A stretch of DNA of 25,360 nt from Patescibacteria group bacterium (lineage in GTDB: Bacteria > Patescibacteriota > Patescibacteriia > S139-126), in NCBI GenBank assembly GCA_015485755.1, contig WFTD01000118.1:1-25360 (forward strand). Direction: 5' to 3'. Made by a program: the position numbers and the translations under genes. A model generated the notes under the pieces. That model ran no database searches. It saw only the letters and a list, made by a program, of their open reading frames with translations, and was not told the DNA's origin. Shown piece by piece: positions 11,704 through 11,897 of the stretch. Position 1 is the stretch's first letter, and each line of letters starts with the position of its first letter.

Positions 11704-11732
11704 TTGACTTTTTTAATTGTTTTTATTATAAA
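11704..11732 (+). promoter_or_regulatory. Putative sigma70 promoter with no downstream CDS
   Basis: TTGACT (11704-11709), 17 nt spacer, TATAAA (11727-11732), preceded by no ORF start and followed by a structured region. Confidence 0.6.
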
Positions 11733-11736
11733 TAAA

Positions 11737-11897
11737 TTGGCGTGAAAACGCCAACAAAATTAAGATCGTAACAAACGATCACTGTCTTACAGACAACCAG
11801 TACACTGCTTAGGACGAAATTTCGTTCTAACAGTCTGGCCTGTAAGAACAATCAAAAACAACAAACACCTCCCTGTTAAAGGGAGGTGTTTGTTGTT
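11737..11897 (+). ncRNA. Candidate structured non-coding RNA of unknown family
   Basis: Four consecutive stems: TTGGCGT-GAAA-ACGCCAA; GATCGT-AACAA-ACGATC; a bulged ~63-nt hairpin (11785-11847); a terminator hairpin. Bracketed by a promoter and terminator; no plausible ORF. Confidence 0.6.
11857..11897. terminator. Bidirectional intrinsic terminator
   Basis: Perfect 17-bp inverted repeat AACAACAAACACCTCCC / GGGAGGTGTTTGTTGTT with a 7-nt loop and U-rich tails on both strands, 8 nt past the DUF167 stop. Confidence 0.85.

Follow-up and report, generated by a model that had tools for sequence, protein, structure and literature searches.

Positions 11704-11897 of the window (the whole stretch of DNA that was analyzed, 25,360 nt) appear to carry all the parts of one transcription unit, the product of which would be a non-coding RNA of ~160 nt on the plus strand; its transcription itself we infer from sequence. 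The putative RNA is a member of an undescribed and narrowly distributed family of small structured bacterial RNAs, found in one order of Patescibacteria. When all observations are considered as a whole, a complete RNA unit with a protein-binding role in a ribonucleoprotein is the best explanation that we can offer, and the balance tips slightly in its favor. The host genome (Patescibacteria, CPR) measures ~0.83 Mb, with 39% G+C, 129 contigs and ~82% completeness, and near-identical DNA is present in DNA runs of hydrothermal-vent metagenomes. A sequence-only reading of the same stretch had proposed a stand-alone, plus-strand structured RNA gene of this length, and the proposal is borne out by homologues, by covariation and by a promoter that is conserved while the spacer upstream has diverged. 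The same reading called the gene an orphan, which it is not, being a member of an order-wide family.

Predicted transcription signals and fold of the RNA

The element lies in a 369-bp gap, with minus-strand genes on both flanks (Table 1). Three features that mark an independent sRNA gene are found here, namely an upstream promoter on the same strand, an intrinsic terminator at the 3' end and a structure backed by compensatory changes. The promoter TTGACT-17-TATAAA and the hairpins lie exactly where the sequence-only reading had placed them, as seen in both the sequence and the fold. On the two strands of the 25-kb window, TTGACW-N17-TATAAW has a single occurrence, against an expectation of 0.03, and both hexamers are identical in the strain variants, where the upstream 65 nt are only ~50% alike in the gap alignment. 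It should be considered that this promoter was assigned by consensus match only and that its -10, TATAAA, is without the usual highly conserved final T, because of which a simple promoter scan did not list it. For comparison, the tRNA operon promoter in the same window reads TTGACG-17-TACAAT, and look-alike promoters of the TTGACTTTTTT type sit before protein genes in the relatives. The RNA is thus predicted to be driven by its own TTGACT-17-TATAAA promoter in the window genome.

At the other end, a terminator stem closes the unit as had been described, with 18 bp rather than the 17 that had been counted; it has a GC-rich core and is followed by UUUGUUGUU. This terminator is symmetric. It would stop plus-strand transcription of the RNA as well as minus-strand transcription of DUF167, and its minus strand, too, scores as a terminator. 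In the relatives, an equivalent 3' hairpin of different sequence is followed by a U-run. The remainder of the gap lies outside the RNA. Its part next to the response-regulator gene, at 11536-11635, contains a small hairpin (11609-11627) that is followed by a T-run on the minus strand, with GGGAGGAG ~30 nt before the ATG, and these conserved 100 nt before the gene may be a leader element of the pilus operon.

Table 1. Positions in the window of the features at and around the predicted RNA gene.
Feature	Position	Strand	Remarks
tRNA-Leu(UAA)	681-767		part of the two-tRNA stretch 583-767
Type IV pilus locus	821-11535, 10.7 kb	-	response regulator, pilB, pilC, pilins, sensor, kinase; between tRNA-Leu and the RNA
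Response regulator, receiver-only	11164-11535	-	followed by pilB; one flank of the gap
Promoter and leader of the response-regulator-pilB operon	11536 to ~11635	-	conserved; outside the RNA
Spacer	~11636-11700	-	fast-diverging; outside the RNA
Sigma-70-type promoter	11704-11732	+	-35 TTGACT 11704-11709, 17-nt T-rich spacer, -10 TATAAA 11727-11732
Predicted RNA start	near G11739-G11740	+	from the promoter position
H1, 5' hairpin	11737-11754	+	7 bp (5 bp if the start is 11739), loop GAAA here; from the fold
Linker after H1	11755-11763	+	A-rich, single-stranded; CAAAAUUAA here, (R)CCAAAAAA in most relatives
H2, hairpin	11764-11780	+	6 bp; sequence differs in relatives; absent in lineage L284
H3, long bulged hairpin	11785-11847	+	holds the conserved core; from the fold
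H3 outer stem	11785-11792 with 11840-11847	+	
H3 asymmetric loop	ACAA 11793-11796 opposite C11839	+	
H3 helix A	CCAG 11797-11800 with CUGG 11835-11838	+	
H3 bulge	UAC 11801-11803	+	
H3 helix B	ACUG 11804-11807 with CAGU 11831-11834	+	
H3 apical stem	11809-11817 with 11822-11830	+	loop AAUU
Bidirectional intrinsic terminator	11857-11897	both	18-bp stem, 5-nt loop, A-tract before, U-tract after
DUF167 (YggU) gene	11905-12180, stop at 11905	-	convergent with the RNA; Pfam match, gene tables

The minimum-energy fold of 11733-11897 reaches -75.8 kcal/mol, compared with -29.8 +/- 3.7 kcal/mol for shuffled sequences (z = -12.4), and none of the 200 shuffles folded as well. This fold reproduces exactly the helices that had been named from the letters, including H2 with its 6 bp and H3 with its four paired blocks. 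The reverse strand, however, folds almost equally well (-75.0 kcal/mol, z = -10.9), and folding alone therefore does not assign the strand. The earlier statement that no credible open reading frame lies inside the RNA is correct, as there is no ATG and the longest plus-strand frame has 9 codons. Two further frames were considered and rejected as genes, one of 41 codons on the minus strand, which a deletion of 2 nt disrupts by frameshift in a strain variant, and a three-codon AUG frame at H1 of the relatives, which is missing in the window genome.

Covariation within the family and in a sister family

Strain variants of the element were reached by a protein search with the response regulator, and are found on contigs whose regulators are 98% and 94% identical to that of the window. 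On these contigs the order is the same, namely trigger factor, AP endonuclease, phosphoesterase, DUF167, gap, regulator, pilB and pilC. Alignment of the gap reveals three zones: the 100 nt next to the regulator are conserved, the following ~65 nt are of ~50% identity, and the sequence from the -35 onward is nearly identical. Within the element, the strain variants keep all stems. Three pairs changed on both sides between strains, one in the H3 outer stem (A-U to G-C) and two in the terminator (C-G to A-U and U-A to C-G), while one further pair changed from U-A to U-G, which is possible on the plus strand only; the non-compensatory changes elsewhere in the element are confined to loops and linkers. 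The same holds for a contig from another study that carries a variant of ~95% identity, whose differences inside the element are all limited to loops and linkers; one of them is the H1 loop, which reads AAAA instead of GAAA.

The covariation that had been suggested as a check of the gene is found when the family is considered more widely. In an alignment of 12 sequences, 93.3% of the pair cells hold standard pairs, as compared to 77.5% after the columns were shuffled and 34-44% in controls with shifted 3' partners, and 20 of the 33 pairs changed on both sides, as compared to 2-5 in the shifted controls; these pair counts are generous, because the alignments were fitted to the structure by a covariance model and the sequences are related. 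Changes on both sides are found for 6 of the 7 pairs of H1, for 6 of 8 in the H3 outer stem and for 6 of 9 in the apical stem. Independent single-sequence folds agree with these covariation figures, and every member presents the same four-hairpin plan: H1, an A-rich linker, H2, H3 (outer stem, asymmetric loop, helix A, UAC bulge, helix B, internal loop and apical stem) and the terminator. By contrast with the changing periphery, helix A, the UAC bulge and helix B do not vary within the family across the 12 sequences, and 17 core bases are invariant although the proteins of the family are only 45-65% identical. One metagenomic lineage that is without H2 turns a core G-C pair into G-U.

The loops, on the other hand, vary. 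That of H1 is GAAA here, AAAA in the strain variants and UAA or UUA in the relatives, so that the weight that the sequence-only reading had given to a GNRA loop falls away. The H3 apical loop differs in size and sequence between members (AAUU, UCUAGAU, UUAA, UUUU and others). Structural switching had also been suggested; the alternative pairings on which the suggestion was based are not conserved, and CAGAC/GTCTG is found only in the window genome. As for the strand, the plus-strand assignment is supported by the same orientation of the tRNAs directly upstream in the relatives, by promoters on the same strand here and in a sister family, by strand-specific wobble changes, and by a count of 20 G-U cells to 10 A-C cells, a ratio of only two to one.

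In the sister family, the slot downstream of DUF167 holds a structured RNA in two of three genomes. The order there is tRNA-Leu(UAA), a terminator of its own, a promoter (TTGATT or TTGAAT-17 nt-TATACT), the structured RNA and a terminator that faces DUF167. The core reads CCAGA-UAC-AUUAG ... CUAAU-UCUGG and lies within a three-way junction, the closing stem of which is wholly different between the two genomes, yet pairs. Helix A and the UAC bulge are thus common to both families, while helix B changes from ACUG/CAGU to AUUAG/CUAAU. This replacement of helix B by other complementary strands appears to be the very covariation that is missing within the window's family. The sister version is also longer, with a closing stem, a small hairpin and the UAC-bulged hairpin plus an extra hairpin (L290:180-400 in G007 and L291:1713-1950, minus strand, in G006). 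Among 401 genomes of the class, the sister-family core is found in just those two. A DNA search in the sister family with the tRNA-Leu(UAA) sequence matched only tRNA-Leu(CAA).

Distribution and genomic slot

The element is present as a single copy in its own genome and as one copy per genome in all six species of the window's family. Four more metagenomic lineages carry it, and the diverged version is that of the two sister-family genomes. The distribution is narrow: the RNA was found in eight of the nine genomes of one order, and a search of about 400 other genomes of the class gave no further case.

Several searches define this range. The pattern CAGTACACTG, followed after a gap of 10-40 nt by CAGTCTG, occurs exactly once in each of the six species representatives of the family, whereas the reversed control pattern has no occurrence in the family genomes; the only match among 395 other class genomes lies within coding sequence. 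With a covariance model of the full RNA, one full-length match was obtained in another genus of the family, with the bases around the H3 bulge common to both. This first model, which included the terminator, matched mostly generic terminators in other families, and it was therefore rebuilt without the terminator. The rebuilt model matched once per family genome, and among 151 class genomes it matched only these; neither the 148 other class genomes nor the sister family gave a match. The four extra lineages were recovered from public assemblies through the neighboring inositol monophosphatase, while a protein search with DUF167 returned the query only. Two loci reached through such neighbors, L286 (inositol monophosphatase 58% identical) and L123 (response regulator 72% identical), are without the RNA. 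When the intergenic region was compared by BLAST with 40 relatives, the sole matches were promoter look-alikes before protein genes. An exact-pattern scan of genome contigs was swamped by chance matches, and none of the 80 loci listed scored with the model. In the DUF167 loci of 29 other families of the class, neither a convergent tRNA-Leu nor a UAC-bulge motif was found downstream. Finally, as the upstream regions of 80 metagenomic pilB loci (at most 68% identical) and of two order-level response-regulator-pilB loci are unrelated to that of the window, the RNA is not tied to the pilus operon.

What the RNA is tied to is the slot next to DUF167, and the homologues in the relatives, which had been called for as a check, lie in this same slot. 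The other five family genomes and the metagenomic lineages all present the order VanW, tRNA-Gly(GCC), tRNA-Leu(UAA) and the RNA on the same strand, followed by convergent DUF167, inositol monophosphatase and phosphoesterase. The convergence of the RNA and DUF167 is kept in every genome with the RNA, and DUF167 is the only conserved neighbor on both sides of the order. The ancestral position of the RNA thus appears to be directly behind tRNA-Gly(GCC) and tRNA-Leu(UAA), and most relatives probably transcribe it together with the tRNAs, at the tail end of their transcript. In the window genome, the RNA is cut off from the tRNA cluster because the pilus locus lies between them, which points to insertion or translocation of this locus into the spacer between tRNA-Leu and the RNA in the window's lineage. 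In such a history, the RNA would have gained its own promoter when the pilus locus separated it from the tRNA operon.

Two observations concern the sequence around H1 and H2 in the relatives. In most of them (L149, L151-L153, L279, L281, L282 and L284), H1 is preceded by a conserved AUCAU and followed by RCCA, which is not the case in the window genome. H1 of these relatives resembles a minimal substrate of acceptor stem plus CCA, and the RNA might be excised by RNase P from the tRNA transcript. In three loci of genus g2 (L142, L143 and L144), the second linker, between H2 and H3, reads CUUAAAAU, an 8-base identity with the anticodon loop of the adjacent tRNA-Leu(UAA); this is probably due to chance, since it is not conserved in G003, in G002 or in the window genome.

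Possible roles and related RNAs

An invariant core of 17 bases, together with peripheral helices that compensate and loops that vary, is what one would expect of a site that is bound in a sequence-specific manner, most simply by a protein. In our proposal, the RNA would be produced constitutively, would be stable, and would work in trans as the RNA component of a ribonucleoprotein. Its invariant bulged helix (CAG / UAC bulge / A-U ... CUG) would serve as the sequence-specific docking site of the protein, while the scaffold and the protection from nucleases would come from H1, H2, the outer stem and the terminator hairpin. A 5' hairpin at the predicted start and a strong terminator hairpin at the 3' end would stabilize the RNA. 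Read from the conservation pattern only, protein binding by this RNA stands at roughly even odds. A known shape of this kind is HIV-1 TAR, in which a three-base UCU bulge is bound by Tat. Both RNAs present two short helices around a fixed three-base bulge that contains pyrimidines, although this is an analogy of shape only, as neither the organism nor the sequence of TAR is related to the patescibacterial RNA. Other readings of the core, as a K-turn, a sarcin-ricin loop, a C/D box or a T-box specifier, were compared by eye, and the sequence does not fit them.

The main rival, which we consider possible but unlikely, is that the RNA acts by base pairing, as a trans regulator or a sponge derived from the 3' end of the tRNA operon, with the A-rich linker as its seed or chaperone site. 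Indeed, in five family genomes and four metagenomic lineages the RNA follows tRNA-Gly and tRNA-Leu in the same orientation, with its 3' end at the operon terminator, and the single-stranded (R)CCAAAAAA linker is widely kept. A comparable arrangement is that of the E. coli 3'ETS-leuZ (glyW-cysT-leuZ operon), a fragment of ~50 nt that is said, in work by Lalaouna et al. 2015, to pair with Hfq-dependent sRNAs; it too is a small RNA directly behind a tRNA-Leu, in a Gly...Leu cluster, on the same strand and ending at the operon terminator. The patescibacterial RNA differs from it in its length of ~160 nt, its four covarying helices and its invariant bulged core, and in having a promoter of its own here and in the sister family. 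As predicted from these promoters, both the sister family and the window genome would transcribe the RNA apart from the tRNAs. Moreover, the linker is of low complexity and differs in the window genome and in G002, while the only invariant bases are found inside helices and not in accessible single strands.

It might also be considered that the hairpins form a stack of minus-strand terminators, or an insulator, which would stop read-through from the trigger-factor-to-DUF167 genes into the response-regulator-pilB operon. Three of the four hairpins are indeed followed by T-rich runs on the minus strand, with terminator-like scores, and the fold of the reverse strand is about as good as that of the forward one. 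We nonetheless find this very unlikely. In the relatives, the hairpins lie between DUF167 and tRNAs that point the opposite way, so that there is no downstream minus-strand operon to protect, and nothing in a plain terminator calls for an invariant core of 17 bases with a conserved bulge. In addition, the strain variants keep the plus-strand promoter, there are more G-U pairs than A-C cells, and in the sister family a separate tRNA terminator is followed by a promoter before the RNA.

The sequence-only reading did not recognize the element as a tRNA, tmRNA, RNase P RNA, SRP RNA or known riboswitch, and Rfam 15 indeed has no match to it. At the gathering threshold, only two tRNAs (583-767) pass in the window, and a permissive scan of 11500-11950 (E up to 10) gave at best 28 bits, where the thresholds are 60-90 bits, with all matches on the terminator hairpin. 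ARAGORN found no tRNA or tmRNA at the locus. An identity as tRNA, tmRNA, RNase P RNA or 5S rRNA was ruled out, as no such model matches and the real copies lie elsewhere, RNase P RNA, tmRNA and 5S rRNA having been found by Rfam at other loci in the family. One of these copies is unusual in itself: the RNase P RNA of the window's genome (G000:C66:5306-5846) is 541 nt long and scores 168 bits, as compared to 375-380 nt and 207-218 bits in four relatives, which suggests that its gene carries an insertion of ~160 nt.

A strongly diverged 6S or SRP (4.5S) RNA that was missed by Rfam is scarcely credible, even though Rfam finds neither of them in five family genomes in which it does find RNase P RNA, tmRNA and 5S rRNA. 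6S RNA is defined by a closing stem of its 5' and 3' ends and by a large central bubble in a long irregular rod. It shares with the RNA described here a single-copy gene, a stable and structured molecule of 150-200 nt and its own promoter and terminator. However, the closing stem and the open-promoter-like bubble are absent from the patescibacterial RNA, where the 5' and 3' ends are unpaired and separate hairpins stand in a row, and for which Rfam gives no score; RF00013 has no match in five family genomes. The earlier idea of a 6S-like RNA thus fails on architecture, and 6S RNA was rejected as a candidate.

For the SRP, the resemblance lies in a long hairpin that has an invariant core and an internal loop of asymmetric shape, in RNAs that are often processed from a longer precursor; in H3, the asymmetric loop has 4 bases opposite 1, as in SRP helix 8. 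SRP RNA has a conserved GNRA (GGAA) tetraloop that closes helix 8, as well as conserved bases in the symmetric loop. The patescibacterial RNA has neither the conserved GNRA apical loop nor the symmetric-loop signature. RF00169 has no match at the locus or in the family genomes, and SRP RNA was found in none of 151 class genomes. The protein side is in agreement: the Ffh M domain (PF02978) is found in none of five family genomes and none of 81 class genomes, an SRP54-type GTPase (PF00448) above the cut-off in none of five family genomes and none of 61 genomes of a phylum sample, and neither Ffh nor FtsY is found in the family genomes. The best match in these protein searches was a Mur ligase. 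The DTAGR motif does not occur in any long frame of the window's own genome. The SRP RNA reading therefore fails, both because there is no Ffh and because the H3 apical loop is variable. That both SRP subunits are absent from many CPR bacteria has been remarked upon in a genome paper (PMC8080830).

Also extremely improbable, in our view, is that the RNA is what remains of a small mobile element, or its cargo, with the 3' side of tRNA genes as the target, for although the RNA lies directly behind tRNA-Leu in the relatives, there is one copy per genome and always in the same slot, no word of at least 9 bases is shared between the tRNA-Leu 3' end and the vicinity of the RNA, direct or inverted, no integrase is adjacent, and the spread follows the host family and the sister family.

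To return to the ribonucleoprotein that we favor, a more specific form of it can be put forward, which we regard as a rather improbable one: the RNA would be a subunit of an unknown, order-specific housekeeping ribonucleoprotein in cells that are without SRP and in which 6S RNA is not detected, and its UAC-bulged helix would be bound by a dedicated protein, for which DUF167/YggU is a candidate. DUF167 as a partner of the RNA should be taken as a lead, not as evidence. If true, this would be the first functional lead for the widespread and uncharacterized DUF167 family.

Patescibacteria have tiny genomes with little non-coding DNA, and an RNA gene that is kept as a single copy across an order is therefore likely to be needed by the cells. 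To our knowledge, the non-coding RNAs known from this large uncultured phylum are very few once rRNA, tRNA, RNase P RNA and tmRNA are set aside. The compact motif of a helix, a UAC bulge and a second helix suits pull-down, structural and metatranscriptomic work, and addition of the family to RNA family databases would allow the RNA to be annotated in many genomes of the group.
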